A DNA stretch of 64,000 bases from Actinomycetota bacterium (lineage in GTDB: Bacteria > Actinomycetota > UBA4738 > CALAEC01). Made by a program: the position numbers and the translations under genes. This document shows, in pieces, positions 4,502-64,000 of this stretch (within the stretch, counting starts at the first letter, position 1; the number at the start of each line of letters is the position of its first letter). The stretch is taken from positions 8,975 through 72,974 of the forward strand of contig JBOGWA010000146.1 in NCBI GenBank assembly GCA_050693155.1, written 5' to 3'. Below the pieces are notes generated by a model, which saw only the letters and a list, made by a program, of their open reading frames with translations, did no database searches and was not told where the DNA came from.

Positions 4502-4502
4502 C

Positions 4503-22644: not shown

Positions 22645-22744
22645 GATTGCCTCCGTGTCCCGGCCACTTCGGCTGGTCATCTCCTCCCTCTGGACCAATC
22701 CGGTGGATGATCTGAAATTCGCTGACCACGAACGGCCTGAGCAC

Positions 22745-22785: not shown

Positions 22786-22855
22786 AACCTACAGGACGAG
22801 AATCTATACGAGCACTCATAAGTTGTCAACCCCCAACAAGCGGCGCCAGGCGAAA

Positions 22856-25896: not shown

Positions 25897-25899
25897 GGC

Positions 25900-27003: not shown

Positions 27004-27007
27004 GTCG

Positions 27008-35305: not shown

Positions 35306-35661
35306 CCCGATCCCCCGGGCGCCTCCTCGAATGCGAGCGTGCCGCTTGGAGCTTGCGGCGAGGGGGGCCGTTCTGCTCCGGGCATCGGAACGTAGAGCAG
35401 CCTCACTTCCCGCGGGAGGACGAGCCCGGCCCGCCGTGCCGCCCGGACGATGTTGTCCGGGGAAGAGAGCTCGGCGAGGCGCAGCCGAAGCCGATCGGAG
35501 GCCGAGCTCAGTTGCTCGGCTCGCTCGTTCAGCTTGTTTGCACGCAGCGATGTCTGCGCGACGAGGACCTGGGTGCTTGCGAGCGCAACGATCATCATCC
35601 CGACGACAACGAGGGAGAAGAGCAGAAACGGCACGCCGCGATCTCGCCGACGCTTCGTCAT
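35302..35661 (-). CDS. ftsL: Cell division protein FtsL-like (septum formation initiator)
   Basis: Small bitopic protein with a transmembrane segment (FLLFSLVVVGMMIVALA) followed by a coiled coil; sits between rsmH and ftsI. Confidence 0.75.
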   Translation of the reverse strand: MTKRRRDRGVPFLLFSLVVVGMMIVALASTQVLVAQTSLRANKLNERAEQLSSASDRLRLRLAELSSPDNIVRAARRAGLVLPREVRLLYVPMPGAERPPSPQAPSGTLAFEEAPGGSG

Positions 35662-45357: not shown

Positions 45358-45359
45358 CG

Positions 45360-49600: not shown

Positions 49601-50152
49601 CCCCATCTCGAGGTGGTTCCTGACCTCGATGAAGCAATCGTCGCCGAAGGCCTCTCGAAAGGACCGCGCCGCCTCACGAGCGGCCCCGGCAAGCCCAGCG
49701 ACCGCGAGCATCCCGGGCTCCGATTCAGGTCCGAGCAGGCAGACGAGGCCTTCCGTCCGCCCCCAGATCTCTCCCGGCCAGAGCCATGGATTCCCCCGCT
49801 CTTTGGCATGCGCAGCCGTGATCAGCCGGCACAGATTCGCGTACCCCAGATCGTCTTTCGCCACGACCACGATCCAGTTCGTTGAGGACCGACCGGCGCC
49901 GGAGGAGCGACGTCGGCACGGGCGGCCATCGCCGGCAAAGGACGAGACGGTGAGTTGGGCGCCGAGGATGGGTTTGACGCCGAGGTCGCGGCAGGCGGTG
50001 ACGAAGCGGGCGACGCCGGTGAGCGAGTCGCTGTCGGTGAGCGCAACCGCCGGCATTCCAAGCTCGGCCGCCCGAACCGCGAGGGATTCGGGGGAGAACG
50101 CCCCATCCTTCAGGGAGAAGTACGACCGGCAGTGGAGGTGAACGAAGGCCAC
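46616..50152 (-). CDS. dnaE2: Error-prone DNA polymerase DnaE2 (ImuC-type PolIII alpha paralog)
   Basis: 1178 aa. N-terminus MAFVHLHCRSYFSLKDGAFSPESL resembles the DnaE2 type (…HAHSAYSFLDGASTPEEL) more than DnaE1. Second PolIII-alpha copy in the window, SOS box upstream, dinB downstream. Confidence 0.85.
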   Translation of the reverse strand: MAFVHLHCRSYFSLKDGAFSPESLAVRAAELGMPAVALTDSDSLTGVARFVTACRDLGVKPILGAQLTVSSFAGDGRPCRRRSSGAGRSSTNWIVVVAKDDLGYANLCRLITAAHAKERGNPWLWPGEIWGRTEGLVCLLGPESEPGMLAVAGLAGAAREAARSFREAFGDDCFIEVRNHLEMGSRSELRRLLRLAEEGRLPAVATNAVRYLVSGDAFLADALECMREIVPVAPHHVTRRNAEGYLKSPREMRMLFADRPDLLRNTLRIAEACDVDLGLGSVHFPEFPTPRGRSATSVLAERCHEGIRRRGVHLTPDVRGRLDHELDQIRRMGYSGYFLTVADIVAEVKAMGIRCACRGSAAGSLVCYAIEISEVDPIRHGLLFERFLNPLRDELPDIDLDVESARREEVYDAILARYGEERCACVAMIDTYRARSAIRESGKALGYPDGEVDRVSKAFPHIGAGKIREAIRDLPELRGSNLAAGQLETLFRVAERLNGFPRHIALHPSGIVLSGKDLPDRAPVEPSFGGYRMVQADKDDVEVLGLLKLDVLGVRMLSAMRHALDEIERTTGERADLDRIPNDDPATYELIRASRTIGCFQIESPGQRELLQKFQPDRFEDLIIDISLFRPGPVKSDMVAPFLNRRHGFERPRYAHPSLKPILQETHGVIVYHEQVMRVLAASGCSLAEADRIRRHLDDDGEIDSLHRNFLYRVTARGLGADDAEKVWRELASFASFGFCKAHAAAFAVPTYQSAWLKSHYPAHFLAGVLTHEPGMYPRRLILEDAREHGIAILPLDINASQRDYTVEPAPDLVKARQTTPPSPPRNATLASSAHPAWLVTHGSRLWTGETARGAERNIPQTTPVSDGSFDVPGVVEDVERSSRAGSPGWVRATSPPPGWEWSAGSPGRESGWGIRLGLRDVYGISDDEIGEILGKRPFASVGDFIRRARVSRPVTEALAHAGAFDELKSGTRRDRLFLAMTAESPWEGEQLALSLAGEPLPPGLREYTDGERVRAELEVLGVDASRHLISFYEPLLADLGAVRSRDLSRHRGGERVTVAGVKVASQTPAVRSGQRIIFLTLDDATGPVDVTVFERAQERCARVVFHSSLLAIRGRLRRTGVKGVSIVAEAAWDLPVLDAARREGRLADALRGGRPGPVDVHVPARKFWHASGGSSGW

Positions 50153-50164: not shown

Positions 50165-50485
50165 TTAGTCCCAGAGCCGCTCGAGATGCCAGCGGCCGGC
50201 CGAGCGGTCCCGGTAGAGGTCACAGACCACCGTCTGACTGGGGGGTCCGCTCGCTGTACGTCCCTCGGCATTGGCGATTTTGGACGAGCTACCCCCCCGG
50301 ACCCCCCGGGCCCTCACCTCGACCCGCCAGTACTCGCGGTCGCGGCCGTCCTCCCACCAACGTCCCTCGATCCGCCAGCGGCCGATCACGTCGACGACGT
50401 GGTACGAACGGCCGTTCCACGAGAAGGCCGACGGCAGCCCGCCATCGAGGTCGACCTCGACCTGCTGGTCGTACCGCTTCGCCAC
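50165..50485 (-). CDS. Hypothetical small Trp/Arg-rich protein (~106 aa) co-transcribed with dnaE2
   Basis: GTG start with SD AAGGGAGG located 20 nt downstream of the LexA box. Sequence VAKRYDQQVEVDLDGGLPSAFSWNGRSYHVVDVIGRWRIEGRWWEDGRDREYWRVEVRA…VVCDLYRDRSAGRWHLERLWD. Ends 12 bp before the dnaE2 start. The ORF-track N-terminal extension (to 50656) would contain the SOS box, so it is rejected. Confidence 0.6.
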   Translation of the reverse strand: MAKRYDQQVEVDLDGGLPSAFSWNGRSYHVVDVIGRWRIEGRWWEDGRDREYWRVEVRARGVRGGSSSKIANAEGRTASGPPSQTVVCDLYRDRSAGRWHLERLWD

Positions 50486-50505
50486 CGGGCCTCCCTTCAA
50501 GGGAA

Positions 50506-50521
50506 TCGAACATATGTTCGA
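50506..50521. promoter_or_regulatory. LexA (SOS/Cheo) box TCGAACATATGTTCGA
   Basis: Perfect 16-bp palindrome matching the actinobacterial/Gram-positive LexA consensus TCGAAC-N4-GTTCGA, directly upstream of the small ORF-dnaE2-MFS-dinB operon. Confidence 0.8.
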
Positions 50522-50675
50522 GAACGCTAAACGTACTCCTCGGCTGCAGCAGTTGTCAAGGGCGAGGAACGACCAGGTGGAAGGGCAATGGGGCCGGCGT
50601 GTGCCGGAGGAGCGACTTTCAGATGGCGGAGCTCCGACGGCGCCGCCGGCTCCCACCAGGTGGGAAAGCGCTGGA

Positions 50676-51284
50676 TCAGGTACCGAGGAGGCAGCCGATC
50701 ACCTCACCCGGAAGCCCGGGGAAGTCGAGGCCCGCGCCTCCGGTCACGAAGTCATACGGCGTCCCTGCCCACTTTCCCGACAGCCCCTCGTACGCACGGC
50801 GCCTCGGGTTTGCGCCCTCGTACTGGAATCCTCGCCAGTCCGGGGAGAAGTATCCCATCGTCCCATACGGCGCCACCGCCGAGAGGCCGGAACCGAACTC
50901 GCGCTCCTCCACCAGGAAACGCCCGCGGAACGACGGCTTCTTTGCGAGCGCTCCCTTCACGTACCATCGTTTCACGAGGAGGAGATACCCCTTGTCGCTC
51001 GGCGGGGACTCGGGGCCTTCGAAGTACCGCATCGCGTCGACGATCCACTTCCCGCGCTCCCCCGTCGTCCGTCGAATTACTCGAAGCGGCTTCTGAAAGA
51101 GCGCCGTTTCATCCCCGGGGGTCGTCCATCCCTCGACGCAGCTGGGAGTCGGCGGCCCCACGGTTGCGCCCGGCCCCGGCGCCGCCGGACCTTCGGAAGG
51201 GTCGTCGCTGCAAGCGGCAAACAGAAGCGCTCCCGCAAGCACATACGTGAGCAATCGCGGGGACCGCAGAGGGAGGGTCGTCAC
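50676..51284 (-). CDS. Hypothetical lipoprotein
   Basis: Signal peptide with lipobox (…LLTYVLAGALLFAACSDD…), GTG start with GGAGG SD, no recognisable domain. Confidence 0.55.
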   Translation of the reverse strand: MTTLPLRSPRLLTYVLAGALLFAACSDDPSEGPAAPGPGATVGPPTPSCVEGWTTPGDETALFQKPLRVIRRTTGERGKWIVDAMRYFEGPESPPSDKGYLLLVKRWYVKGALAKKPSFRGRFLVEEREFGSGLSAVAPYGTMGYFSPDWRGFQYEGANPRRRAYEGLSGKWAGTPYDFVTGGAGLDFPGLPGEVIGCLLGT

Positions 51285-51330
51285 GACGCGGAAGGATAAC
51301 CTCCGGGGAGCCCGATAAGATGGTTGCCCC

Positions 51331-52698
51331 GTGCCGAGGCGCGTTTCTCGTCGCCACTTCATCGGAACGTCGGCAGCTGCGGCCGCCGGCGTCCTTCTGT
51401 CCTCCCCGCGCTCCGGCCTGCGGGCACAGCCGGGCTCGGGTCCGAACGCCGATTCGATCGACACACAGTGGCCGATCAAGCGCGTCGTCTACCTCATGCT
51501 CGAGAACCGCAGCTTCGACAACATCTTCGGCCGGTTCCCCGGAGCAAACGGCGCGACCGTGGGAGTTCGCGAAGGTCAAGAAGTCCCTCTGATCCGCTGT
51601 CCCGAGTGGCTGCCGGGCGACATGCCTCATGACACGTTCTCGTATTACGTCCAGCTGAACGACGGGAAGCAAGATGGTTTCGCCCACGGGAAGTACGGAC
51701 CCTTCTACGCCTACTCGCAGTTCGAGGAGCAACAGATCCCCAACTACTACCACTGGGGAAAGAACTACGTCCTCTGTGACAACTTCTTCCAATCTGCGAT
51801 CGGCCCCTCGCATCCGAATCACCTCTTCTTCATCGCGGGCACCTCCGGTGGCGCGATCGACAACCCGGAAAACATCCGGGTTCGCGCGTACCCGGACGGC
51901 AGGCAGGTGAAATCGTGGGGCATCGACGCCGACGGTGAGGCCGTCTACGTCTTCGTGAGAGACGAGCGGGGAAACCTCACCAAGCACAGCACCGCCTTCG
52001 ACGTCCCGACCTATGGAGAGGAGCTCTCGAGGGCAAAGGTCGACTGGGCGTACTACGCGGCCGAGCCCCACCAGCCCGGATACATCTGGTCAGCCTACTC
52101 GGCCATCCCCAACGTTTTTTTGTCCGATCTCTGGGATCAGCACATCCGACCGGTGGACGACCTCCTCGCCGACATTCAGGCAAACGAGCTTCCGTCGGTG
52201 ACGTGGATCACACCGCGGTTCCAGCTCTCCGACCATCCGCCGTTCAGCACCTGCCACGCCCACGATTGGGTGACCGACATTGTGAACTCCATCATGCGAA
52301 GCGCGATGTGGGACAGTGTCGCGATCTTCATCACCTGGGACGAGTGGGGCGGCTTCTACGACCATGTGCCTCCGCCGTCACCCGATCCCGTCGGTTTCGG
52401 CTTTCGCGTTCCGATGCTCGTCGTCTCCCCGTACGCGCGCCACGGCTACATCGACGACGCGCTCGGAGAGTTCTCCTCTCCCCTGAAGTTCATCGCCGAC
52501 AACTGGGACCTCCCCTACCTCACCGATCGCGTGCGGGCGACGCACAACTTCGAGCACGTCTTCGACTTTTCGCAGAGCCTCCGGCGGCCCGACCCCCAGC
52601 CGAAGCTCAGGAACTGCACGAGTACCGCATTTGAATTCCCCGAGGATTACGACGGGTGGCTCGAAGGTATTGAGCCGGATCCGCCGAAGATCGCCTAG
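51331..52698 (+). CDS. Tat-secreted phosphoesterase-family protein (phospholipase C / acid phosphatase AcpA family)
   Basis: Tat signal RRHFIGTSAAAAAG. Phosphoesterase-family blocks (…VVYLMLENRSFDNIFG…; …HPNHLFFIAGTS…; …ITWDEWGGFYDHVPPP…; …GFRVPMLVVSPYAR…). Confidence 0.85.
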   Translation: MPRRVSRRHFIGTSAAAAAGVLLSSPRSGLRAQPGSGPNADSIDTQWPIKRVVYLMLENRSFDNIFGRFPGANGATVGVREGQEVPLIRCPEWLPGDMPHDTFSYYVQLNDGKQDGFAHGKYGPFYAYSQFEEQQIPNYYHWGKNYVLCDNFFQSAIGPSHPNHLFFIAGTSGGAIDNPENIRVRAYPDGRQVKSWGIDADGEAVYVFVRDERGNLTKHSTAFDVPTYGEELSRAKVDWAYYAAEPHQPGYIWSAYSAIPNVFLSDLWDQHIRPVDDLLADIQANELPSVTWITPRFQLSDHPPFSTCHAHDWVTDIVNSIMRSAMWDSVAIFITWDEWGGFYDHVPPPSPDPVGFGFRVPMLVVSPYARHGYIDDALGEFSSPLKFIADNWDLPYLTDRVRATHNFEHVFDFSQSLRRPDPQPKLRNCTSTAFEFPEDYDGWLEGIEPDPPKIA

Positions 52699-52759
52699 GG
52701 CTTTCCGATCGGGGGACCGCTCGCCCTCGCGCGAAGAGGGCGGGAGCGCCCCTGGCGAG

Positions 52760-53524
52760 CTATCCCCCCGAACCCCCCGCCATCTCGGCGAGGGCCTCCG
52801 CGTACCGGCCGCCGTCGCCCTTCTGGACCGAGTCCAGCGTCGCCCCGCAATCCGTCAGGCTCTCCGCCCACCTGGCGGCAGCCCGCCGCGCCGGGTCGCC
52901 GAGGAGCCGGAGCGTGTCCTCGACAACTCGCTCGAGAGCGCGGGTGGCCCCGTCGTGCATCCGGAGCAACCGCCGGAGACGCGGAAGGCGTACCAGCTCG
53001 TCGCGTGAGAGCGCGACAACCGCGGTTCTCACATCGAGCGCTTCGATGGATTCCCGATCCTCGTCCGAATGGACGATGACACACCGGGCCCGGCGGGCGA
53101 CGAACGCCGCCGACGCCGCTTCGGGCGATGCTCCCAGCGCGCGTCCGATCGACGACGCTTCGTTCCGGCTCCGCTCCCCCAGCCGATCACCGTTTGCGAT
53201 CAGCCCTCGAATCAACGGCCGGAGGTCGACTTCGTGCAGGATCACCAGCCCGGGGTACCGCGTGGCCAGCCGGTAGACTTCGCGATGCCTGGCGAAATTG
53301 CTCTCGAGCTCGTACACGGCGAGGTCGCTCGTCTCGAGCAGGTCCTCCGCGTCGGCCGGCGGCGGCCACGATGCTTCCACGAGACGGCGGCGCCCGAGGC
53401 CCAATCGAGCGAGCCGGGCGAGCGGCGAGCGTCGCCACCCAGAAGAGCCGCGCTCAAGCTCCGGCGAGAAGAAGACCACGCGGACCTTGAGGCGGTGGAC
53501 CCTCGGGCGGCGACGGAGTCTCAT
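52760..53524 (-). CDS. Hypothetical protein, translationally coupled (ATGA) to the upstream GT4 gene
   Basis: ~254-aa ORF in the same operon as the GT4 gene; no recognised domain. Confidence 0.45.
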   Translation of the reverse strand: MRLRRRPRVHRLKVRVVFFSPELERGSSGWRRSPLARLARLGLGRRRLVEASWPPPADAEDLLETSDLAVYELESNFARHREVYRLATRYPGLVILHEVDLRPLIRGLIANGDRLGERSRNEASSIGRALGASPEAASAAFVARRARCVIVHSDEDRESIEALDVRTAVVALSRDELVRLPRLRRLLRMHDGATRALERVVEDTLRLLGDPARRAAARWAESLTDCGATLDSVQKGDGGRYAEALAEMAGGSGG

Positions 53525-54570
53525 CCGAGGAGCCGTTCCACAACCTCGGGCCACGCGGGAACCCGATCGCGCACGAATTGTTGCCCGGCTGCGCCGAGGC
53601 GCTCCGCAAGACCGTGGTCACCGATGAGGCGGTCGAGAGCGTGCGCGATCGCACGAGGCTTTGGAGGGGGGATCAACCCGGTCTCCCCCTCGGCAACGAA
53701 CTCGAGCGGGCCGCCGCTGTCGCTCGTCGTCACGACTGGCCGACGCACGGCCATCGCTTCGAGCGTGACGTATCCGTAGTCCTCGTCGAAGGGGCCGTAG
53801 TACACGGCGCCCGCTCCCGCATAGAGATCGAGGAGCCGTTCCTCCGAAACCGCCCCGGTCATTTCGACGCGGTTCCACAAGCCCCCATCCTCGATCTGTC
53901 TCCGGAGCGCGAACTCGTCGGCGCCGCTCCCGACCAGGATGAGCCGGGCCCCGCTGCGCACATGGCGCATCGCATCGATCGCGAGCGACTGGCGTTTGAT
54001 CCCCTCGAGCCGACTTGGGAACAGGACGTAGTCTCCGTATGGCCCGGGCTCGCGCGCGAGGAGCGCCTCGTAGATCGACGACGGGTGATAGAGAGCCTCT
54101 GCGGACATCTCCAGATTGCGCATGAGACGCTCCCTGACGTTGGCCGAGTTCGTGAAGATTCGCTTCGCCTCACCGAGCGCGATCCGGTCGGCGCTGTGGA
54201 TCATCTCCCGAACCCGCGGCCCCTCTTCATGCGCCGCCAGGTCTCCGAAATCGGGGTGGTCCCAGAGCTCGTACGCCGTTCGGTGCTGGTGGATGAGCCA
54301 GACCACCTTTCGCTCGTGCCGCACGAGGTAGGCCGGGAACTTCAGCGCGATCGTCATGTCGATCCGATCACCCCCGGTCTCGGAGAGGTCGAGGCTGCGC
54401 CAGAGCGCCATGTGATGAACCAGCTCCGACGGCGGGTACCACTTGAAGGGGATGCGCAGGAGCTCGACCTCGTGGCCTGCCTCGCGGAGGGCGCGCGCCA
54501 AGCTTTCCGTGTGCATCTCGGCGCCGCCACGCGCGAACGGCACCTGTGGATCGCAGATCGCGATCCTCAT
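53521..54570 (-). CDS. Glycosyltransferase family 4 (GT-B, retaining)
   Basis: MRIAICDPQVPFARGGAEMHTESLARALREAGHEV… N-terminal domain. C-terminal …LILVGSGADE…YGPFDEDYGYVTLEAMAVRRPVVTTSDSGGPLEFV… (EX7E region). Confidence 0.85.
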   Translation of the reverse strand: MRIAICDPQVPFARGGAEMHTESLARALREAGHEVELLRIPFKWYPPSELVHHMALWRSLDLSETGGDRIDMTIALKFPAYLVRHERKVVWLIHQHRTAYELWDHPDFGDLAAHEEGPRVREMIHSADRIALGEAKRIFTNSANVRERLMRNLEMSAEALYHPSSIYEALLAREPGPYGDYVLFPSRLEGIKRQSLAIDAMRHVRSGARLILVGSGADEFALRRQIEDGGLWNRVEMTGAVSEERLLDLYAGAGAVYYGPFDEDYGYVTLEAMAVRRPVVTTSDSGGPLEFVAEGETGLIPPPKPRAIAHALDRLIGDHGLAERLGAAGQQFVRDRVPAWPEVVERLLG

Positions 54571-54968
54571 TCGCCTGTTGTGTGAGGCTTGCCGGAGCGC
54601 CGAGTCTCCTCATCAAGGCGCCGCCTCAATGCTCCGAGCTCGGTTTCCAGTCGGTTGATCTGCGATTCGGCCCTGCCGAGGAGATCGGCAAGCACCGCCC
54701 CGGTCGCGGCGAGTTCCGCGGTGATGCGGTCGTAGCGCCTCGTCAGTGGGCGGAAGACCCGGTGCATGATGATCTTCACCCGGCGGAAGCGTGACCCCCG
54801 CCGGAGGCCGGGATCGGTCCATGGGGCGGCGTTCTCAAAATCGTTCTTCACGACCTGAGCGAGACGGTCGAGGGCGGCACGGATCTCCTGGGCCGTGCCG
54901 GGAGGTTCACTCTCCTTGCCTTCGAGCCAGTACACCTCCCGCTCGAGGGTCCGCCGCATCTCGTCCAT
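54567..54968 (-). CDS. Hypothetical coiled-coil protein
   Basis: 133-aa ORF overlapping the GT4 start by 4 bp; C-terminal heptad-rich segment. Confidence 0.4.
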   Translation of the reverse strand: MDEMRRTLEREVYWLEGKESEPPGTAQEIRAALDRLAQVVKNDFENAAPWTDPGLRRGSRFRRVKIIMHRVFRPLTRRYDRITAELAATGAVLADLLGRAESQINRLETELGALRRRLDEETRRSGKPHTTGE

Positions 54969-55054
54969 GGCGGCATCGTAATCCAGCCGACGGGGGGGCT
55001 AACGCGTCGCGGCTAGTTGCGCTTCCTGCATGCGTGCCGTTTACTAGCCGGCCA

Positions 55055-56701
55055 GTGATCCGGAGGCGCATCCCCGCCCTCCTCCTGCTCATCGCCGTCG
55101 CTTGCTCCGAGGCAGCGCTGCCCGGAGAGCCGCGCGTGCCGGAGGAGTCTCCGCCTGGAACCGGGGGCACGGGCCCCGTGGCGTCCGGGCCGTTCGTCGA
55201 CGCCATCTGTGGGCTTCCGGCCATTCAGGCCCTGCGCGTCTGGCGCGGCTACTACCCGGGCCGTTCCGGCGAGCTCCAGTTCGTCGCCAAGCCCTTCAAC
55301 TTCTTCGGGGGGTGGTCGCATTCGGGGCCGGCGCCCTATCTCCAGCGGATCCCGATGCTCTTCTACGGCCCCGGTCATGTTCCGGCGCTCGGTCCCGTCG
55401 ATCGAGGGGTCACGATGGCCGATCTCGCTCCGACCCTCGCTCGATTCCTCGACTTCGACTTCGAGACCGCAGACGGGTCGGCAATGGAGCAAGCGATCCT
55501 TCCCGACCAGGCTCCGCCTCGTCTCATCTTCGTTCTCGTGTTGGACGGCGGCGGGCGAAACGTCCTGACCGCCTACCCGGATGCATGGCCGAACACGGCG
55601 GAGCTGATTCGCCGTGGGGTCTGGTTCGACAACGCGACCGTCGGCTCGTCGCCCTCGGTGACGCCGGCGATCCACACCACGCTCGGGACCGGAGTCTTCC
55701 CTCGGCGGCACGGCCTCATCGACCTCCGACTTCTGTTCGACGGCCGGTTGGTGGGGCCCCACACCGCCGGACCTCAGTTCCTTCGCGCACCGACGCTCGC
55801 CGACCGCTACGACCAGGCGCTGGACAACGAGCCGGTCATCGCCTTCGTTGCGCCGGAAGGCACGCTGGGGATGATCGGTCACGGTTCCTTCCTCGAAGAC
55901 GCCGACCAGGACTTCGCCCTCGCTCAACGGGAAGGGTCTTGGGGCCTGAGCGAGGCCAACCAAGGCTTCTACGACTTCCCTTCCTACATCAACCAGATCG
56001 GAGGGCTGAACGAGGCGGCGCGCCGACTTGACGTGAGCGACGGCCGACAGGACGACGCCTGGCTGGGGCTGCGCGTGCTGGACACCCCCGCCCAGCTCCA
56101 GCTCACACCGGCGTGGACGGAGTACCAGACGGGCGTGCTCCGCGAGGTCATCCGCCGTGAGGGATTGGGGGATGACGACATCCCGGATCTCCTCTTCACG
56201 AACTACAAGCAGATCGACAAGGTCGGCCACGAGTGGAGCTTCCCGAGCGTCCAGATGGAAGCGGTCGTCGGGGCTCTCGATCGAGCGGTCGGCGATCTCG
56301 TTCGGACGTTGAACCAAGAGGTTGGCCGCGGCGAGTGGGTCCTCGCCCTGACCGCCGATCACGGCGTGACTCCCCGCGAGGACACGACGGGAGGATTCCG
56401 CATCGACATCGGGGAGATGCTCAATGACATCAGTGCGGCCTTCGACGGTGACGGCGATGATCGGAATGTCGTTTCGTCGGTTCGCGTGACACAGTTCTGG
56501 ATGAACACGGACGAGCTCGCCGAAAACGGGTACTCGCTCGAGGACGTGGCAACGTTCGTGATGGAGTACACGAAGGAGCAGAACGTTTTGGACCCGAATC
56601 TGCTGCCCGAAGAGGAGCGGAGTGAGACGCTGTTCGCTGCGGCCTTCCCGGGCCCCGTGCTCGAGAAGAACCTCCCGTGCCTCCCGCCGACGAACGCATG
56701 A
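55055..56701 (+). CDS. Alkaline-phosphatase-superfamily protein (type I phosphodiesterase/nucleotide pyrophosphatase-like), lipoprotein; paralog 1
   Basis: GTG start, signal peptide with lipobox (VIRRRIPALLLLIAVACSEA). Metal-site and nucleophile blocks (…LIFVLVLDGGGRNVL…; …NATVGSSPSVTPAIHTTLGTGVFPRRHGL…; …LALTADHGVTP…). Confidence 0.8.
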   Translation: MIRRRIPALLLLIAVACSEAALPGEPRVPEESPPGTGGTGPVASGPFVDAICGLPAIQALRVWRGYYPGRSGELQFVAKPFNFFGGWSHSGPAPYLQRIPMLFYGPGHVPALGPVDRGVTMADLAPTLARFLDFDFETADGSAMEQAILPDQAPPRLIFVLVLDGGGRNVLTAYPDAWPNTAELIRRGVWFDNATVGSSPSVTPAIHTTLGTGVFPRRHGLIDLRLLFDGRLVGPHTAGPQFLRAPTLADRYDQALDNEPVIAFVAPEGTLGMIGHGSFLEDADQDFALAQREGSWGLSEANQGFYDFPSYINQIGGLNEAARRLDVSDGRQDDAWLGLRVLDTPAQLQLTPAWTEYQTGVLREVIRREGLGDDDIPDLLFTNYKQIDKVGHEWSFPSVQMEAVVGALDRAVGDLVRTLNQEVGRGEWVLALTADHGVTPREDTTGGFRIDIGEMLNDISAAFDGDGDDRNVVSSVRVTQFWMNTDELAENGYSLEDVATFVMEYTKEQNVLDPNLLPEEERSETLFAAAFPGPVLEKNLPCLPPTNA

Positions 56702-59700
56702 GCGACGTCTCCGAGAAGCGGGGAGGCGAAGCGACCGGCGGGGAAGCGTCCTCGGGCATTGCCGGGAGGCTCCAAACGGTCGCTCGGCAACCCTGGCTGG
56801 TTGTCGCCGCGGTGGCCGTGGTCGCCTTGCTGCTCGGTTGGCAGTTCCTCACCGATCCAACCCGAGGGGTTCCCGCCTTCGACGAGCCCTTCTATCAGTG
56901 GCGGGCCGAGTACCTCCAGCAAGCGGAACCGCAGGCGCTGATCGCTCTGCGTGGCGCGCGGGGAGCGCTGGCGGGCGGGTACCGCGTCGCCGAACCGGTC
57001 CTCGGAGCGCTCATGCGCACGGTCGGGGGTCTGGGCGCCTCGACTCCCACGATCGTGCTCTCGGTCCTGTTCCGCGTGATCTGCGCCCTCGGGCTTGCCG
57101 CATTCGCATGGCGACACCGGAAGAGCTGGCTGCTCTTTTACATCACGCTCTTCGCCGTTCCGGCGCTCTTCCTTCTCCAGCGGTTCTTCGGGTTCCTCGA
57201 CAATTTCTTTGCGCTTGCAGTCACAACAGGCGTGCTCCTTCTCTTGGAGCCGCTCCGAAGGAACTGGTTCGCGTGGCTGGCCGTCGCGGGGTTCCTGTTC
57301 ATCGGGGGGCTCACACACCCGACGTCGCTTGCGTTGTTCCTCCTCGCGATCGGCGCCGTGGCCGGCTACCGGCTCCTCCGCGAACGCAGCCTCGCTGCCG
57401 TCCTGCACTCAGAGGGCTGGCTCCTGCTCGCGGGGACGGTTGCGGTCGTTCTTACCGCTGCATTCTGGATGGGGGGACTCTGGGGTGAGCCGTCGAGCTT
57501 CGGCGACGCCGCGGTTCCGCCGCCGGAAGACGTCGATTTCTTCGTCAACCGCTCGCTCGGCGTCTTTCGCGGGCTCCAACCCGAGATCCTCATCCCGATC
57601 GCGGCCATCGGTTTCGTTTACCTCGTCTATCGGAGCCTGAAGAAGAAGGACTCCTTCGCCGAAGTGACGGTCGCCTGGACGCTGCCGCTCGTCGGCATGT
57701 TCGGATTCCTGATCGGGGCGGCCTACCCGTACTTCCGGTTCTTCAACGGCACCCTGGCGCCGCTCGTCGTGGCCGCCGTAGGACTGTGGTTGCTCGCGTA
57801 TGGGCCATCGCTGCTTCGTCGGCGGGCCGTGGCGAAGGTCGGCGCCGGGATCGGCGTAGTCGCGGTCGCGGCGATCCTTTTCGGCTGGTGGTCCCAGGGC
57901 CTTCAGGACTGGAACTCGAGCGGCTCCTGGCTGACACCCGAGCTCCGAGAGCAGACCGCGGCTGCCGACGGCTACCTCGGGGCGGAGCCCGCCAACCGAC
58001 AGGCCGTGTTCGTCGTCGATGCGCAGCCGGGTGAGGTCGTTTCCTACGGGAAGTACAAAGAGGCCGTCAACGGAATCTACGCGGGCCTCGCCGGCGAGCG
58101 GATCGGACGCACGACGTTCTTCTTCGGGCGAATCGAGGACTTCTCGAACGGCACGCCGACGACCACGGGGGACGAGGTCTACGACGAGATATCCAGAGAG
58201 ACCGCCGAGGGAGCACTCGTGTTCCTGATGGACCCCTCGAACGTCGTCGTGTTCGTGCCGGCGGTCTTCAACGAGCACTCACCGAACGCCGAGTTCCTCG
58301 AAGACTGTCCCGCGACCGAATGTCGACAGGTTGGGGAAAGCGGGCTGTTCGTTCTGACCGACCCCGGGGCCGGGGTCTCGGAGCCGTCGCTGGAGACTGC
58401 CGAGCGAGCCGCTGCGGCCGCACGATCCTTCGTCGCGAGCCCTCCTGGCTTCACCAACGGTCTCGGAAGCACGCTTCTCGCGATCTTTCGACTCGTCGCG
58501 CTCTTCGGTCTCCCTGGATACCTGCTGTGGCGTGGCTTCCCCGAACGACGATGGTTGGAGGGACTGGTCCTCGTCCCGTTGCTGTCGATCACGATGCTGA
58601 CGACCGTCGGCGTCTTCCTTCTCGCGGCCGTGCGCCAACCGTTCGGCGAGGCGCTCGGCTGGCTCACCTGGGGGATCGCCTCGGCAGTCGGTGGTCTAGT
58701 GGCCCTCCGGGCCCACGCTCGTCGGAACACTCCCCCGTCGTCGGGACCGTCCGGGTCGCGCGTCGCGCAAATGGCGCGCGACACGCTCAGCCTCTTCGGC
58801 AAGCGGGACTTCACCTTCCTCATGGGAACCCAGTGGTTCGCGCAGGCGGCCGACGGGCTCGTCGGCGTCGCGCTTGCCAAGCACATCGTTTTCGGCGGGC
58901 AAGCGGGGTTCTCGCTCGAGGAGGCCCGGAGTCCGGAGGACATCCTCCGGATCGCGCTCCTCACCTTTCTCCCCTACGCGGTGCTGAGCCCGTTCTTCGG
59001 GGTGCTTATCGACCGCTTCGACCGCAGGAGACTGCTCGTCGGGGCGAACGCGATCCGCACCGTTGCGATCATCGCGATCGCCGTCCTCGGCATCGAGCGC
59101 CTCACCGACTCCCCGTTGGGCGATGGGGTGCTCTTCGGCTCGTTCCTCCTCGTGCTCGCGGGGACACGGCTGATGCTCGCAATCAAGGGCGCCGGGGTTC
59201 CCGCTGTGCTCGGGGAACGCGACCTGATCCAGGGGAACTCGATCTCGCAGGCGGGAAGCGCCATCTTCCAGCTCGGCGGCGCGGGGACGGCCCTCGTGGC
59301 GGCGACGTTCGTGCCCTCGGAGCCCATCATCCTGATCGGGGCCCTCGGGTATGCGGTCGCGACGGCCTCGGCTTGGGCGATCGGACGGCTCGGCTATGCG
59401 GATCGAAGCACGCCGCTTCGCGAAGAGGTCCGCCGCATAGCTCGAGACCTCGCCGAAGGCATCAAAGAGGTGCTCCGACGGCCCCGCGCGGGCCTCGCAC
59501 TCACCTCGTTCCTTGGGATCCGGACGCTGCTCTCGTTCGTCCTCATCTCGATTGCGCTCGCCTCTAGAGAATTCCTCGCGGCGCGAAGCGACGTAACGAC
59601 TGCGATCCCGGCCGTGGCGGGGGCGCTTGGAGCCGCGGTCGGCTTCTTCGCCGCACACGCGATGCGAGAACGTGTCTCGCCGGTTCGGATCGTCGTCGGC

Positions 59701-60060
59701 GCGCTCATGTTCGCCGGCGCCGGCGTCGTCGCCTTCGGAGGGATCATCACCCTCGCCGGGCTCTCCCTCGTGGGATTCGTCGTCGGCGTCGGGTTCTTCC
59801 TGGGCAAGGTGGGCGCCGACACCCTCATGCAGCAGTCGTTGGAGGACTCGTTCCGCGGACGCGGCTTCGGGCTCCAGGACCTCGTCTACAACCTCTCATG
59901 GATCCTCCCCGCGCTCGTCGTCTCGGCGCTGTGGAGTGACGAGCGCGCCCGCGCCCTTCTGATCGGTGGAGGGGTGCTCTTTCTTGCATGGGGGGCATTG
60001 ATCGCACTCTGGGCGCGCACGCTTCCGGCTGAGTCGCCGGCGCATCCGCCTCGACGTTAG
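56698..60060 (+). CDS. Large fusion membrane protein (~1120 aa): N-terminal GT-C-like polytopic domain, central soluble domain, C-terminal MFS-type 12-transmembrane domain
   Basis: ATG overlaps the upstream stop (ATGA). The first extracytoplasmic loop carries FDEPFYQWRAEYL, resembling the ArnT/PMT DE-x-x-Y motif. Residues ~430-640 are hydrophilic. Residues ~640-1120 form ~12 transmembrane helices with MFS-like motifs (…FLMGTQWFAQAADGLVGVAL…). Confidence 0.7.
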   Translation: MSDVSEKRGGEATGGEASSGIAGRLQTVARQPWLVVAAVAVVALLLGWQFLTDPTRGVPAFDEPFYQWRAEYLQQAEPQALIALRGARGALAGGYRVAEPVLGALMRTVGGLGASTPTIVLSVLFRVICALGLAAFAWRHRKSWLLFYITLFAVPALFLLQRFFGFLDNFFALAVTTGVLLLLEPLRRNWFAWLAVAGFLFIGGLTHPTSLALFLLAIGAVAGYRLLRERSLAAVLHSEGWLLLAGTVAVVLTAAFWMGGLWGEPSSFGDAAVPPPEDVDFFVNRSLGVFRGLQPEILIPIAAIGFVYLVYRSLKKKDSFAEVTVAWTLPLVGMFGFLIGAAYPYFRFFNGTLAPLVVAAVGLWLLAYGPSLLRRRAVAKVGAGIGVVAVAAILFGWWSQGLQDWNSSGSWLTPELREQTAAADGYLGAEPANRQAVFVVDAQPGEVVSYGKYKEAVNGIYAGLAGERIGRTTFFFGRIEDFSNGTPTTTGDEVYDEISRETAEGALVFLMDPSNVVVFVPAVFNEHSPNAEFLEDCPATECRQVGESGLFVLTDPGAGVSEPSLETAERAAAAARSFVASPPGFTNGLGSTLLAIFRLVALFGLPGYLLWRGFPERRWLEGLVLVPLLSITMLTTVGVFLLAAVRQPFGEALGWLTWGIASAVGGLVALRAHARRNTPPSSGPSGSRVAQMARDTLSLFGKRDFTFLMGTQWFAQAADGLVGVALAKHIVFGGQAGFSLEEARSPEDILRIALLTFLPYAVLSPFFGVLIDRFDRRRLLVGANAIRTVAIIAIAVLGIERLTDSPLGDGVLFGSFLLVLAGTRLMLAIKGAGVPAVLGERDLIQGNSISQAGSAIFQLGGAGTALVAATFVPSEPIILIGALGYAVATASAWAIGRLGYADRSTPLREEVRRIARDLAEGIKEVLRRPRAGLALTSFLGIRTLLSFVLISIALASREFLAARSDVTTAIPAVAGALGAAVGFFAAHAMRERVSPVRIVVGALMFAGAGVVAFGGIITLAGLSLVGFVVGVGFFLGKVGADTLMQQSLEDSFRGRGFGLQDLVYNLSWILPALVVSALWSDERARALLIGGGVLFLAWGALIALWARTLPAESPAHPPRR

Positions 60061-61787
60061 TACCCGAGAACGTCGAGCCGTGGCGCGGTGTGGAGGTCTC
60101 CCTCGGGATACCGACCGTCGCCGAACGAACGGACCGTGGAATCGCTGAGGCCGGCCAGGAACGAGCCGGGAAACGCGCCGGCGAAGATCCGTTCGTCGAG
60201 AAGAGATTCCGGAAGCGCCGCGAAATCCGCATCGGACGGCAGACAATCTCGGTACGTGAGATCGCCGATGAAGCGGGCGACGTCCTCGAGTCGAATCTGC
60301 CGGTCGCCGATCACCCCGGAGTTCAGATAGATCCCGGAGGGCGTCACCTGCTCCACGACGTCTCCGAAGTGCTCCTGCACGCGGCGGCCGAGCACGTCCG
60401 GGTGGATTCGAACCCCGTCCTTGGTCTCGGGGAGAGGTGTTTGGCCGTGGTCGGCGGTCAGGGCGAGCACGTAGTTCCTCGGACCGATCTCCTCGTCGAA
60501 GAACTCCACGAGCCGACCGAGGACCTCGTCCTGTGCGCGGAGGACGAACTCTTCCTCCGGAGCGACCATGTTCCAGATGTGGCCGCCGAAGTCCGCCGGC
60601 TTCAGCTCCACGAACAGGAAGTCCGTGAGCCCGTCGCGGCCGACAGGCTCCCGCTTCAAGATCTCCACGAGCGCGTCTCCCTGGTAATTCACGAAGGCCG
60701 GGGTTCCCGGAACGATCGTCTCGTCCCCGAGGTCGTGGCCCATCCAGAGACCGTCCCGTGCCCCGTCGCTCGCGTCGAGATCCCGCAAATGCTCATCGAG
60801 GACGTCGGCTCCTGGAAGGTAATCCGGCAGGGTGTACACGTCCTCGTTCGTGAAAAACGTGGACGTTTCGGGCTCCCAGAGCACCGCCACGTCGGCGTCG
60901 CCTCCCGGCGACTGCGATCCCTGCCCCATCATCCCGAGGTGCCACGACTCGTACCCGAGGAGCCCGACCCACGGCCGGTTGTCGTTCTCCCGATCCCAAG
61001 CGTCGGCGAGCGTTTCGGCCTCCAGCAACCGAGGGTTGGCCTCGTCGAAGTAGATCTCGCCGATCCTCCCGTCGGGCAGCCGAGCGACGTTCTCGGAGAG
61101 GCCGTGCTCCTGCGGGTACGCCCCCGTTCCCATCGTCGCGTGGATCGCAGCGGTCACCGAGGGGGCCGAGCCTATCGTCGCGTTGGTGTACGTCGTTCCC
61201 TCGCGGGCAAGGCGGAGTTGCGTTGGCCACGCATCCGGCCACTGCGCGAGGAGGTTCCACCCGACACCGTCGTAGGCGACGACCACGACGACGCGCGGCG
61301 CGCCGTTTCGATCGCGGGGCGGCAGAAGGGCCTCGTGCAGCACCTCACCGTTCGGGGCGTCGAAACCGAAGCCCAGGAGGTCGGTAAACGTTGGGGCCAG
61401 ATCTGCGACATCGATTGACAGGGTGGAAGTCGCGCCCGATCGAACGTACCCGGGCCCGTACAGCATGATCGGGACGCGCTGGTGGTAGTCCCAGGGCGTC
61501 GGGTGGCTGCTTCTCGGGTCGGCCGCCGACGTTCCGAGCCCCTCCGCGCGGAACCTAACGACCGTGTTCCACGGTTGCGGCACGAACGCGACGTCCGGCG
61601 AACGGCCCTCGAAATAGCCCTGCTGGAGGTGCTCGATCACGTCGGCCCCGACCGCGGCGGCCATCTCATCGAGCGTCCTCGACCCGGTCGGCGCCCCAGG
61701 AGAAGACGAGCATCCGCCCGACAGGAGAGCGCCGGCAATCAGCACGGCTGCGATCCGGCGGCGAGCCTGGTTGCGGGTGCGGGTCAC
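60057..61787 (-). CDS. Alkaline-phosphatase-superfamily phosphodiesterase-like lipoprotein; paralog 2
   Basis: Lipobox (…AGALLSGGCSSS…). Same conserved blocks (…VVVVVAYDGVGWNLL…; …NATIGSAPSVTAAIHATMGTGAYPQEHGL…; …LALTADHGQTPLPE…). Confidence 0.8.
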   Translation of the reverse strand: MTRTRNQARRRIAAVLIAGALLSGGCSSSPGAPTGSRTLDEMAAAVGADVIEHLQQGYFEGRSPDVAFVPQPWNTVVRFRAEGLGTSAADPRSSHPTPWDYHQRVPIMLYGPGYVRSGATSTLSIDVADLAPTFTDLLGFGFDAPNGEVLHEALLPPRDRNGAPRVVVVVAYDGVGWNLLAQWPDAWPTQLRLAREGTTYTNATIGSAPSVTAAIHATMGTGAYPQEHGLSENVARLPDGRIGEIYFDEANPRLLEAETLADAWDRENDNRPWVGLLGYESWHLGMMGQGSQSPGGDADVAVLWEPETSTFFTNEDVYTLPDYLPGADVLDEHLRDLDASDGARDGLWMGHDLGDETIVPGTPAFVNYQGDALVEILKREPVGRDGLTDFLFVELKPADFGGHIWNMVAPEEEFVLRAQDEVLGRLVEFFDEEIGPRNYVLALTADHGQTPLPETKDGVRIHPDVLGRRVQEHFGDVVEQVTPSGIYLNSGVIGDRQIRLEDVARFIGDLTYRDCLPSDADFAALPESLLDERIFAGAFPGSFLAGLSDSTVRSFGDGRYPEGDLHTAPRLDVLGY

Positions 61788-61866
61788 TGCGTCACTTTCG
61801 GATTCGTGGGCGAGAGTCTACGCGAGGCCCCCTCCACCCGACGCCGCGTAGATATTCTGCGTGCGT

Positions 61867-63627
61867 CTAGGTCAGAGGCCGGCCGGTGAGCAGTCCCCGG
61901 ACACTCAGAGGAGACGTCAGGTCTCCCTCCGGGTACCGTCCCTCTCCGAGTGCGAGGAGATCTTCGGCGCCGATCTGCTCGAGGAGGCTCCCCGGGATCG
62001 CCGCAGCGAAGACGCGTTCGTTCAGCCGGGCCTCGTCGATGAGCGTCGGGTCGGACCCTTCGGGGAGCGCGTCCCGATACCGGTAGTCGCCAAGGAACCG
62101 CGCGATCTCGCCCACGGCCAGGCCGGCCGAGCGAACCTCGTCCATGTCGAGGTAGACGTCGTCGGGGTGGACGGCTTCGATGACCGACGCGCCGAAGTAG
62201 TCGTTCACCTCATTGGCGATCTGGAGCCGGTCGATCCGCAGGCCGCCCGTCGTCTCGGGAAGAGGGGTCTGCCCGTGATCGGCTGAGACCGCGAGGACGT
62301 ACCGCCCCGCTCCGATGTTTCGATCGAGGAACGAGACGAGCCTACCGATGACCCGATCCTGGGCCCGCAGGATCGCGGCAACCTCAGGGCCTTCCATGTT
62401 CCAGATGTGCCCTGCGTAGTCGCTCGACTTCAGCTCGAGAAATAGGAAATCCGTGAGGTTGTCCGTGGCGATGGGTTCGCGTCGGAGCACCCGGAACAGG
62501 CTCTTCCCCATGTAATCGACGAACGCGGGCGTGCCCGGAACGATGAAGTCGCTCTCGAGGCTGTTCCCCCGCCAGGCTCCGTCGGTAATGCCATCGGTCC
62601 GATCGAGCGCAGCGAGGTCATCGGCGAGGCGCTCGGGCCCGGGAAGATAGGAGGGCAGTCGGTAGAAACGCTCGTTCGTCCAGAGTCGGCCCTCCTCGCG
62701 CTCCCAGAGGACGGCGACGTCGCGATCCCCCCCGAGCGATCGGGTCCCCTTGCCCATCATGCCGAGATGCCAGGACTCGAAGCCGAGCATTCCGACCCAC
62801 GGTTCGTTCCCGTTGGCCTTGTCCCAGTGGTCGGCAAGACTCCCGCGACGAATAAGCCTGGGGTCCGCCTCGTTGAAGAAGAGCTCGCCGAGCTCGCCAT
62901 TCGGGAGTCGTCCGGTGTTCTCCGGCATCCCGTGGAGGCGGGGATAGGCGCCCGTGCCCATCGTCGCGTGGACGGGAGCCGTGACCGAGGGCGCCGAGCC
63001 AACGGTTGCATTCGTGTACGTCGTTCCTCCCGCGGCCAGCCGCCGCACGTTCGGCCACGCTCGGGGCCAGCGTTCGAGGACGTTCCACCCGCCCCCGTCC
63101 TGCACCACGAGCACGACGAGCCGCGGGACCGATCGATCGGGTCGCGGAAGAAGCGCTTCGCGAAGCACCTCCCCGTCCGGCGCCTTGAATGGGAAATCGA
63201 GGATCTCCGCAAACGTCGGGGCGAGGTCCGCAACCGTCACGGGCCAGTCCACCCGCCCTCCGGCCCGGATGGTTCCAGGGCCGGACAGGATGATCGGAAC
63301 CCGCTGGTGATACGACCACGGGGTGGGGTGCGTCGTTCTCGGATCCTCCGGTCCTCTTAGACCCTCCGGCCACTGGCCGATGACGTTCCAGGGCTTTGGG
63401 ACCAAGGAGATCTCTCCCGAGCGATCGGGAACGTATCCCCGAGCGAGGTGCAGGACCACGTCGCGCCCGACGGTGCGAAGCATCTCCTCCACCGTGGGGG
63501 CCCCAGCAGGAGCATGTCGCCGGCCAACGGCCGTGGTGCAGCTCGCCGCGACGAGCGCGCAGACGATGAGCAGCAACGGGCCGACTCGGCCCGGGCGCGT
63601 TCGAGAACGGGGATGCGTTTCACGCAT
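61867..63627 (-). CDS. Alkaline-phosphatase-superfamily phosphodiesterase-like lipoprotein; paralog 3
   Basis: Lipobox (…IVCALVAASCTT…). Conserved blocks (…LVVLVVQDGGGWNVL…; …NATVGSAPSVTAPVHATMGTGAYPRLHGM…; …LAVSADHGQTPLPE…). About 55-60% identical to paralog 2 by eye. Confidence 0.8.
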   Translation of the reverse strand: MRETHPRSRTRPGRVGPLLLIVCALVAASCTTAVGRRHAPAGAPTVEEMLRTVGRDVVLHLARGYVPDRSGEISLVPKPWNVIGQWPEGLRGPEDPRTTHPTPWSYHQRVPIILSGPGTIRAGGRVDWPVTVADLAPTFAEILDFPFKAPDGEVLREALLPRPDRSVPRLVVLVVQDGGGWNVLERWPRAWPNVRRLAAGGTTYTNATVGSAPSVTAPVHATMGTGAYPRLHGMPENTGRLPNGELGELFFNEADPRLIRRGSLADHWDKANGNEPWVGMLGFESWHLGMMGKGTRSLGGDRDVAVLWEREEGRLWTNERFYRLPSYLPGPERLADDLAALDRTDGITDGAWRGNSLESDFIVPGTPAFVDYMGKSLFRVLRREPIATDNLTDFLFLELKSSDYAGHIWNMEGPEVAAILRAQDRVIGRLVSFLDRNIGAGRYVLAVSADHGQTPLPETTGGLRIDRLQIANEVNDYFGASVIEAVHPDDVYLDMDEVRSAGLAVGEIARFLGDYRYRDALPEGSDPTLIDEARLNERVFAAAIPGSLLEQIGAEDLLALGEGRYPEGDLTSPLSVRGLLTGRPLT

Positions 63628-63709
63628 GGGAAAACCGCTCGGTCGAGCGCTCCGAACGGTGCCCTAGAATATGCGCGCTTGAACGAGAACACTCGCCCAG
63701 GCGATCCCC

Positions 63710-64000
63710 CATGCGAATCCTGATCCTCGGAGGTGACGGCTATCTCGGATGGCCAACGGCCATGCGCTTCTCCGCGCGTGGTCACGACGTGCACTGCGTC
63801 GACAGCTATCTGCGTCGTCGCGCGGTCCGGGAGGAAGCAGCCGACTCCCTGACCCCCCTCGCCGACTCACTGCCGGCCCGCGCCGAAGCATGGAAAGCGG
63901 TCGGCGGGAGAGAGATCGGTGTGACCGAGGGGGACCTCTGCGACTGGGAGGTCGTCGAGCGCTCCTTTCGGGAGTTCGCTCCGGAAGCAATCGTCCACTA
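63710..64000 (+). CDS. sqdB: UDP-sulfoquinovose synthase (SqdB/SQD1/Agl3 family short-chain dehydrogenase), 5' part; gene continues beyond the window
   Basis: MRILILGGDGYLGWPTAMRFSARGHDVHCVDSYLRRR…SLTPLADSLPARAEAWKAVGGREIGVTEGDLCDWEVVERSFREFAPEAIVH aligns closely with the SQD1 N-terminus (…VIGGDGYCGWATALHLS…VDNLVRR…[36 protein letters not shown]…FEPDSVVH). Confidence 0.75.

Follow-up and report, generated by a model that had tools for sequence, protein, structure and literature searches.

We analyzed a gene cluster from an uncultured lineage of Actinomycetota, located at 50.7–64 kb of a 64,000-bp stretch of genomic DNA (contig JBOGWA010000146.1, positions 8,975 to 72,974; hereafter, the window). 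Genes in this region were called with the guidance of GC content at third codon positions (GC3), and their products were scanned against Pfam and NCBIfam. A first-pass annotation had named five gene classes here, namely an exported phosphoesterase, three phosphatase-like lipoproteins, a glycosyltransferase family 4 (GT4) operon, a giant membrane protein, and UDP-sulfoquinovose synthase (sqdB), and had read them as a phosphate-starvation unit for membrane-lipid remodelling. All five classes were found in the Pfam and NCBIfam scans, and the gene calls made by eye proved right. The genes are described below together with their relatives in other genomes, and an alternative reading, that of an envelope glycan system, is then weighed.

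Gene products of the locus

The three paralogous lipoproteins, designated NPP1 (55055–56701, + strand), NPP2 (60057–61787, − strand), and NPP3 (61867–63627, − strand), had been placed in the alkaline phosphatase superfamily, in agreement with their matches to PF01663 (E-values of 2.4e-23 and 5.1e-28 for NPP1 and NPP3), and carried the lipoboxes IAVAC, LSGGC, and VAASC, respectively, each followed by a short Ser/Thr/Pro-rich linker. The start of NPP1 was moved from that of the mechanically called open reading frame (ORF) at 54791 to a GTG at 55055, and its stop overlaps the start of the gene for the giant membrane protein. NPP2, which is 100% identical to MGH2740716.1, shares 53% identity with NPP3 and 36% with NPP1, and the NPP2 and NPP3 genes are separated by 79 bp in the window.

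NPP3 matched PafA and PhoK in the PDB, and the nucleophile Thr and the Asp/His ligands were invariant among the NPPs. The three proteins are modelled as PafA/PhoK-like two-metal phosphoesterases with an alkaline-phosphatase-superfamily fold and an intact Thr nucleophile. A sulfatase assignment was rejected: the Thr nucleophile lies in an SVT context, the Cys/Ser-x-Pro-x-Arg formylglycine motif is missing from the NPPs, and the model was nearest to PafA and PhoK. An invariant His (His95, in HPTPWDY) was found within the N-terminal ~100 mature residues, in a segment that aligns to the C-terminal element of PafA and PhoK bearing the last metal ligand. Because the His of this last ligand appears to sit N-terminally and no invariant His follows the DH motif, the alignment suggests that the lipoproteins are circularly permuted relative to PafA and PhoK. 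Their scores against the equivalog-level PafA model NF042991 were 91–93 bits vs a cutoff of 650, and the NPPs are classed by sequence as a subfamily distinct from PafA, with the C-terminal element apparently permuted.

The giant membrane protein (1127 aa; 56677–60060, + strand) had been described as a fusion of a GT-C glycosyltransferase with a major facilitator superfamily (MFS) transporter, and both parts were borne out. Residues 1 to ~700 (56677–58776) had no Pfam match. The structure model of this domain, obtained with 27 sequences (pLDDT 80, pTM 0.85), had GT-C proteins as all of its top 20 matches; AglB, STT3B, and ALG12 scored 18.4, 18.0, and 17.9, and further matches to AftA, AftD, and ArnT scored 16.3, 15.9, and 15.5, respectively. 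An Asp residue (D69, in AFDEPFYQWR) is invariant in the first outside loop of the domain. Residues ~710–1127 (58777–60060), with about 12 transmembrane (TM) helices, matched MFS_1 (E-value of 2.2e-16) and TIGR00900 (7.8e-29). The product is predicted to unite a GT-C-fold glycosyltransferase with an MFS transporter; in four related loci (L003, L004, L007, and L034), the MFS protein is encoded by a separate, adjacent gene. An assignment of the GT-C domain as an N-oligosaccharyltransferase was also rejected, as neither the Asp nor the Tyr of WWDYG is conserved, although WWxxG is present. Both the GT-C/MFS fusion, for which there is no Pfam model, and the apparently permuted PafA-like lipoprotein are unannotated protein families that are now defined and directly testable.

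The sqdB gene (63711–64000, + strand), divergent from NPP3 as reported in the first-pass annotation, is cut by the window end after 96 codons. The encoded fragment is 67–71% identical to full-length orthologues and contains the Rossmann motif GGDGYLGW. The full-length orthologues matched plant SQD1 (E-value of 1e-157) and NF041015 (1e-144) and carried the YHASK motif (Tyr182, His183, and Lys186), and the C-terminal 181 aa of the SqdB of the source genome, encoded on Logan contig L037, were 68% identical to the L005 protein. On this sequence evidence, SqdB is judged a true SQD1-family protein.

The accession run from MGH2740716 to MGH2740719 implies the order NPP2, NPP3, SqdB, and a family 2 glycosyltransferase (GT2). 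L037, which encodes exactly MGH2740719.1, carries the SqdB C-terminus followed without a gap by the GT2 gene and then by thiE and thiS; an sqdX- or sqdD-like transferase, which the first-pass annotation had suggested looking for past 64000, was not found among these genes. The GT2 protein (MGH2740719.1, P0304) consists of three N-terminal TM helices, which are DUF2304-like, and a GT2 domain. The sqdB–GT2 pair was present in the source metagenome-assembled genome and in all six relatives whose sequence reaches that side (L001, L002, L005, L006, L009, and L015), with a gap of 0–2 nt. The best NCBIfam matches of the GT2 protein were AglJ, PpgS, and Dol-P-hexose transferase (E-values of 7e-29, 6e-23, and 2e-22, respectively), all below the equivalog cutoffs, and its orthologues matched DPMS and ArnC in the PDB. 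The DUF2304 match of the N-terminus was weak (E-value of 1.2e-4, 22.7 bits; E-value of 1.2e-3, 19.5 bits; Pfam gathering score, 25.5), and PF10066 (DUF2304) is recorded for several GT2 homologues. On its best matches, the protein encoded behind sqdB would be a membrane-anchored GT2 that acts as a polyprenyl/dolichyl-phosphate sugar synthase; enzymes of this type supply GT-C enzymes with polyprenyl-phosphate sugars. The known synthases of sulfoquinovosyldiacylglycerol (SQDG) are SqdX (GT4) and SqdD (GT8) (PMC13436972). Because sqdB is coupled to a GT2 of the former type and not to SqdX or SqdD, the pair does not point to a sulfolipid pathway, and in annotation practice sqdB by itself should not be taken to show sulfolipid synthesis.

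SqdB homologues were also observed on plasmids of cultured actinobacteria, with 57% identity in Pseudonocardia autotrophica (pPA12743CP; L035) and 47% in Rhodococcus qingshengii (L036). The partners of the Pseudonocardia homologue are a GT2/GT21-like transferase and a MurJ-like flippase, and those of the Rhodococcus homologue are a BcsB-like protein, a processive 624-aa GT2, and an alkyl sulfatase. These loci were set aside as models for the window locus, as their partner glycosyltransferases differ and they are not directly informative. Because the plasmid partners differ, sqdB in Actinomycetota seems to feed several products.

The exported phosphoesterase (455 aa; 51331–52698, + strand), described earlier as a Tat-exported protein of the phospholipase C (PLC)/acid phosphatase family, matched PF04185 with an E-value of 3.7e-65 (220.8 bits vs a gathering score of 23), and its twin-arginine N-terminus, MPRRVSRRHFIG, matched TIGR01409 (19.2 bits vs a cutoff of 16.7). 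Its best PDB match was the acid phosphatase AcpA (2d1g; E-value of 3.6e-28), with bacterial PLCs next. It scored below both NCBIfam cutoffs, with 148 vs 580 for the phosphocholine-specific PLC model TIGR03396 and 150 vs 363 for the AcpA model TIGR03397. The protein consists of the catalytic domain alone and, on these scores, appears assignable to neither phosphocholine-specific PLC nor AcpA; it is about equally distant from AcpA and from bacterial PLCs.

Of the GT4 operon (− strand), one intact GT4 gene and a conserved gene for a small protein were confirmed; the other glycosyltransferase proved to be a short ORF. The first gene encodes a small cytoplasmic protein of 133 aa (54567–54968), which had no family match in Pfam or NCBIfam and whose orthologues, 48–51% identical, are invariably encoded upstream of GT4. 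The GT4 protein (349 aa, GT-B; 53521–54570) matched Glycos_transf_1 (E-value of 2.9e-27), and its orthologues in all clade-A loci (defined below) are 65–70% identical. Its best NCBIfam score was 66 bits vs a cutoff of 400, and every equivalog was far under its cutoff. Among the NCBIfam profiles, which include no SqdX model or sequence, no diacylglycerol (DAG) glycosyltransferase scored above noise; these profiles give no basis for naming the GT4 as SqdX, Agt, or any other DAG glycosyltransferase. The last ORF (264 aa; 52760–53554) had no Pfam domain and matched just the N-terminal ~180 aa of the 425–442-aa second glycosyltransferase of the relatives (35–37% identity to the L005 and L006 proteins). 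It does not contain the catalytic C-terminal GT1 domain that is present in L005, L006, L009, L017, and L033, and the short form is apparently common to L010 and L015.

The first ORF of the region (50676–51479, − strand), absent from the list in the first-pass annotation, is divergent from the PF04185 gene and encodes a lipoprotein with a signal peptide, the lipobox LFAAC, and a mature part of ~200 aa; its true start is probably near 51265. It had no match in Pfam or NCBIfam, and orthologues with 43–58% identity occupy the same position in L005, L006, L009, L010, L015, and L033.

Conservation in related genomes

For the GT-C, NPP, and GT2 families, 33 related loci (L001–L034, L037) were collected from genomes and metagenomes, and their neighbourhoods were mapped by tblastn. 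Loci whose GT-C protein is 52–59% identical to that of the window were assigned to clade A, and those with 30–36% identity to clade B. The clustering is more than chance: the gene order recurs in L005, L006, L009, L010, L015, and L017 and is rearranged in L033. The clade-A order is PF04185, glycosyltransferase, GT4, small protein, NPP(s), GT-C/MFS, NPP, (degenerate NPP, ArsP_1, and DUF1980), NPP, SqdB, and GT2. The window is a reduced version of this order without ArsP_1 and DUF1980.

An ArsP_1 permease, a DUF1980 protein, and a degenerate NPP-like protein of 425–450 aa accompany the core in most relatives. They were located in L005 (16358–18060), L006, L009, L001–L004, and L028 and are missing between NPP2 and NPP3 of the window; one possibility is that they provide the exported metalloenzymes with metal.

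In clade B, the core of NPP, MFS, NPP, and GT-C is kept, and PF04185, GT4, and SqdB are absent. The combination of NPP, GT-C, and MFS was thus retained down to 30–36% identity, with stops and starts overlapping, and the comparison indicates that PafA-like lipoproteins, GT-C, and MFS form the invariant unit. The three N-terminal TM helices are fused to GT2 in both clades, and in two clade-B loci, L022 and L028, a gene of the same GT2 family (43–44% identity) precedes the core, with SqdB absent.

In clade B, Wzy_C, Wzx, and a clear sulfotransferase (Sulfotransfer_3, E-value of 1e-28) come after the core. Genes for Wzy_C-like, Wzx-like, and 3′-phosphoadenosine-5′-phosphosulfate (PAPS)-type sulfotransferase proteins were observed in this fixed order behind the distant GT-C core in L004 (8384–12957), L023, L024, L028, and L030. 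In L033, the block of PF04185, glycosyltransferase, GT4, small protein, and NPP is still adjacent to the core after rearrangement, and the place of SqdB is taken by a marginal pyruvyl-transferase-like gene accompanied by another GT2, and by a sulfotransferase-like gene with a weak match. L007 and L034 contain sulfatases and extra GT-C paralogues. The Wzy_C, Wzx, and sulfotransferase genes beside the distant core point to glycan assembly, and the sulfotransferase, sulfatase, and pyruvyl-like genes around the core make anionic or sulfur substituents a recurring theme. Taken together, these accessory genes suggest a glycan that is assembled with anionic substituents, sulfur-containing or other. 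The PF04185 enzyme and the GT4 operon form a neighbouring module specific to the lineage, and this module may make a glycolipid.

A candidate envelope glycan system and its alternatives

The reading that we favour, tentatively and with slightly less than even confidence, is that the locus is a conserved cell-envelope glycan system of this uncultured Actinomycetota lineage with attached phosphatases, and not a sulfolipid pathway. Past the gene identities, every step of it is one that we infer. SqdB would make UDP-sulfoquinovose in the cytoplasm, and GT2 would load sulfoquinovose onto polyprenyl phosphate. The lipid-linked sugar would then cross the membrane, possibly via the fused MFS domain, and the GT-C domain would move sulfoquinovose to an envelope acceptor on the outer face, for which a wall glycopolymer, a lipoglycan, and the co-encoded lipoproteins are candidates. 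The outcome would be an anionic surface group free of phosphorus. GT-C enzymes draw on polyprenyl-linked donors to glycosylate envelope glycans, lipids, or proteins on the outside of the membrane, and the rebuilding of DAG lipids is not among their reactions. The PafA-like lipoproteins, whose genes show translational coupling to that of GT-C and which belong to the invariant core, would most likely hydrolyse, or transfer from, phosphoesters on the same membrane face. In such a system, envelope charge carried by phosphate would be exchanged for, or supplemented by, charge carried by sulfonate, as when teichuronic acid replaces teichoic acid. The likeness to this switch, by which the phosphate theme of the first-pass annotation would be partly right, is a speculation by analogy.

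A more specific proposal is possible but clearly less probable than the general one. The lineage may make polyprenyl-phosphate-sulfoquinovose, and the GT-C/MFS protein may put it on an envelope polymer or on lipoproteins; the core would then be a platform for alternative phosphorus-free anionic cassettes (SqdB; PAPS-type sulfotransferase with Wzx/Wzy; pyruvyl transferase), and the phosphatases would remove or recycle phosphate groups. The accepted view of sulfoquinovose is that of a phototroph lipid headgroup and, in archaea, an N-glycan sugar. If the proposal is true, its product would be a non-lipid sulfoquinovose glycoconjugate, the first in bacteria. A soil or sediment actinobacterial lineage that sends UDP-sulfoquinovose via polyprenyl phosphate to GT-C would also bring a new class of lipid-linked sugar donor, a possible sulfonate analogue of the switch from teichoic to teichuronic acid, and a sink and a source that are new to the sulfoquinovose cycle. 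Literature searches returned nothing on polyprenyl-linked sulfoquinovose, the SqdB/PpgS-like pairing, the GT-C/MFS fusion family, or DUF6541, and nothing relevant on sqdB in Actinobacteria.

Several points weigh against an envelope glycan system. The GT2 scores are far under the NCBIfam equivalog cutoffs (101 vs 325 bits), and in L033 the pyruvyl-transferase and sulfotransferase matches fall below cutoff or are marginal. Since there are GT2 enzymes that glycosylate diacylglycerol, the acceptor may be a lipid. The link between the GT2 product and the GT-C protein rests on co-location, in 6/6 clade-A loci and in L022 and L028 of clade B; SqdB–GT2 lies ~3.6 kb from the GT-C gene, beyond two phosphatase genes, and, in a single lineage, inherited synteny could explain this proximity. 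The core can occur without SqdB, which L033, L007, L034, and clade B generally lack. To our knowledge, the known polyprenyl-phosphate-sugar/GT-C systems imply no role for PafA-like proteins, and we know of no MFS protein that acts as a polyprenyl-phosphate-sugar flippase.

Inherited synteny is also the basis of the alternative that survives best, although it is unlikely: the PF04185 enzyme, the GT4 operon, the phosphatase/GT-C/MFS operon, and sqdB–GT2 would form no single unit and would merely have stayed together in one lineage. The cluster lies in conserved core chromosome, with the unrelated DUF6504 and dnaE2 genes interleaved or adjacent in relatives, and its genes are divided among four or five separate transcription units, which lie on both strands; the distant clade-B loci are without PF04185/GT4 and SqdB. 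On the other hand, the block from PF04185 to NPP still adjoins the GT-C core after the rearrangement in L033, and a member of the GT2 family is again found with the core in clade B, where SqdB is absent. A GT2 that makes polyprenyl-phosphate sugars also requires a GT-C partner, and the gene for such a partner lies within 4 kb.

The original phosphate-starvation reading, in which the exported PLC frees DAG, SqdB and GT4 or GT2 rebuild SQDG or glycolipids, and the PafA-like lipoproteins scavenge phosphate, appears improbable, although part of it stood. Its gene identities, including the genuine SqdB, and the conserved cluster were upheld; the Tat-exported PF04185 enzyme and three PafA/PhoK-like lipoproteins are classic types of phosphate-scavenging exoenzyme, and PF04185 is convergent with the conserved GT4 operon in all clade-A loci, a neighbourhood that loosely resembles the PlcP–Agt lipid-remodelling pairs of other bacteria. 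The replacement of phospholipid by SQDG when phosphorus is limiting is well established in phototrophs (PMC13436972). The points not borne out were the expected SQDG transferase and the signs of phosphate control. The gene coupled to sqdB is of the polyprenyl-phosphate-sugar synthase type, sqdB adjoins neither SqdX nor SqdD, and the GT4 lies 9 kb from sqdB in a separate operon, with no DAG-transferase profile above noise. DAG lipid synthesis also has no place for a GT-C enzyme, and the distant cores lie beside Wzx, Wzy, and sulfotransferase genes, not lipid genes.

As to phosphate control, the first-pass annotation had proposed a search for PhoP/RegX3-type repeats. At 50–64 kb, none was found for two tandem units of the Streptomyces PHO box with up to three mismatches, and the operator of this lineage may differ; the missing Streptomyces PHO box is weak negative evidence on Pho control. 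The orthologous upstream regions, compared by eye, are short and have no conserved repeats, with only −10-like hexamers in common (e.g., TAGAAT/TACAAT 5′ of sqdB). The promoter and terminator scan gave 0 promoter-like and 10 terminator-like sites, no more than in shuffled controls, and there were no pst or pho genes among the scanned ORFs of the window.

About as improbable is protein glycosylation, in which the GT-C protein would O-glycosylate the co-encoded PafA-like lipoproteins with the polyprenyl-phosphate sugar made by GT2, and the locus would yield glycosylated surface phosphatases. The GT-C gene and its lipoprotein neighbours always form one operon, in which their codons often overlap, and the lipoproteins carry Ser/Thr/Pro-rich linkers after the lipobox. 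Actinobacterial Pmt/Ppm1 O-glycosylates secreted lipoproteins, and GT-C genes beside the gene for their own protein substrate exist, as in the TfpW/pilin pair. Against this, the oligosaccharyltransferase motif is reduced to WWxxG, and Wzy_C/Wzx at the distant loci suggests a polymer target over a protein.

The term "island" in the first-pass annotation, in the sense of horizontally acquired DNA, was ruled out, because the composition is ordinary (GC content of 0.657–0.674 in the region vs 0.64–0.68 window-wide, with a flat profile) and the context is conserved core chromosome (the dcw cluster, dnaE1, ileS, dnaE2, MoxR/DUF58/TgpA, and dinB).

Several features were observed elsewhere in the window. 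The dcw (division/cell-wall) cluster (21508–35755, − strand) contains ftsZ, ftsQ, a murB-like gene, murC, ftsW, mraY, and ftsI, and DivIVA is encoded at 17978–19102. Genes for the permease and binding protein of a branched-chain amino acid ABC transporter (1186–4939) adjoin an ANTAR response regulator (3914–4798). A tRNA gene lies at 4857–4939 (− strand), and a tRNA alone was found in an Rfam search of the whole window at the gathering cutoff. There are two DnaE-type polymerase III alpha genes in the window, dnaE1 (7332–10919, − strand) and dnaE2 (46616–50152, − strand), and a dinB-like gene for a Y-family polymerase (44164–45498, − strand) lies with a MerR regulator gene between the MoxR/DUF58/TgpA genes and dnaE2. 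Directly upstream of dnaE2, a perfect LexA-type SOS box, CGAACATATGTTCG (50507–50520), is located just 5′ of the DUF6504-matching part of ORF 50165–50656 (− strand); DUF6504 homologues are 81–91 aa long. The identical SOS box lies 5′ of DUF6504 in L005 and L009, where DUF6504 is embedded among phosphatase genes. A partnership of DUF6504 with DnaE2 under SOS control is possible; dnaE2 and DUF6504 with its SOS box are unrelated to the envelope locus.

Comparison with known systems

Unlike PlcH and PlcN, the PF04185 protein of the window is without C-terminal domains, and it is as near to AcpA as to PLCs. A phospholipase-C-family gene beside a GT4 gene is shared with the PlcP–Agt phosphate-starvation pair, although PlcP is a metallophosphoesterase, of a family other than PF04185. 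The NPPs are 18–19% identical to PafA of Flavobacteria and PhoK/SPAP of Sphingomonas and differ from them in being lipoproteins, in lying in GT-C operons, and in the apparent move of the last metal-ligand His to the N-terminus.

With the SQDG pathway (SqdB/SQD1 with SqdX/SQD2, or SqdB–SqdD–SqdC), the locus shares an SqdB orthologue with the SQD1 YHASK motif. In contrast to that pathway, the partner of sqdB is a DPMS/PpgS-like GT2 with neither SqdX (GT4) nor SqdD (GT8), and the host is a non-phototrophic actinobacterium. Archaeal N-glycosylation includes systems with sulfoquinovose (Sulfolobus Agl3) and with Dol-P-sugar/GT-C steps (Haloferax AglJ, AglD, and AglS). Here, too, UDP-sulfoquinovose serves a non-lipid glycoconjugate, as we infer for the present locus, and AglJ is the best model match of the GT2; the differences are the bacterial host and the lack of an AglB-type WWDYG motif.

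The closest precedent is the mycobacterial trio of PpgS (Rv3631, a polyprenyl-phosphate-GalNAc synthase), the small membrane protein Rv3632, and the GT-C enzyme Rv3779 (PMC3485146). Like this trio and the wider group of three-component systems (GtrA/B/C, ArnC/ArnT, and CsbB/YfhO), the locus would combine a GT2 as putative polyprenyl-phosphate sugar synthase, a small DUF2304-like membrane module, and a GT-C protein that acts outside the membrane. Unlike such systems, it has the DUF2304-like module fused to GT2, a GT-C protein that is fused to MFS and has no Pfam model, and two to five PafA-like lipoproteins in the operon; the sugar implied by the coupled SqdB is sulfoquinovose. The locus is best classed as a variation, in an uncultured lineage, on the known polyprenyl-phosphate-sugar/GT-C glycosylation systems.

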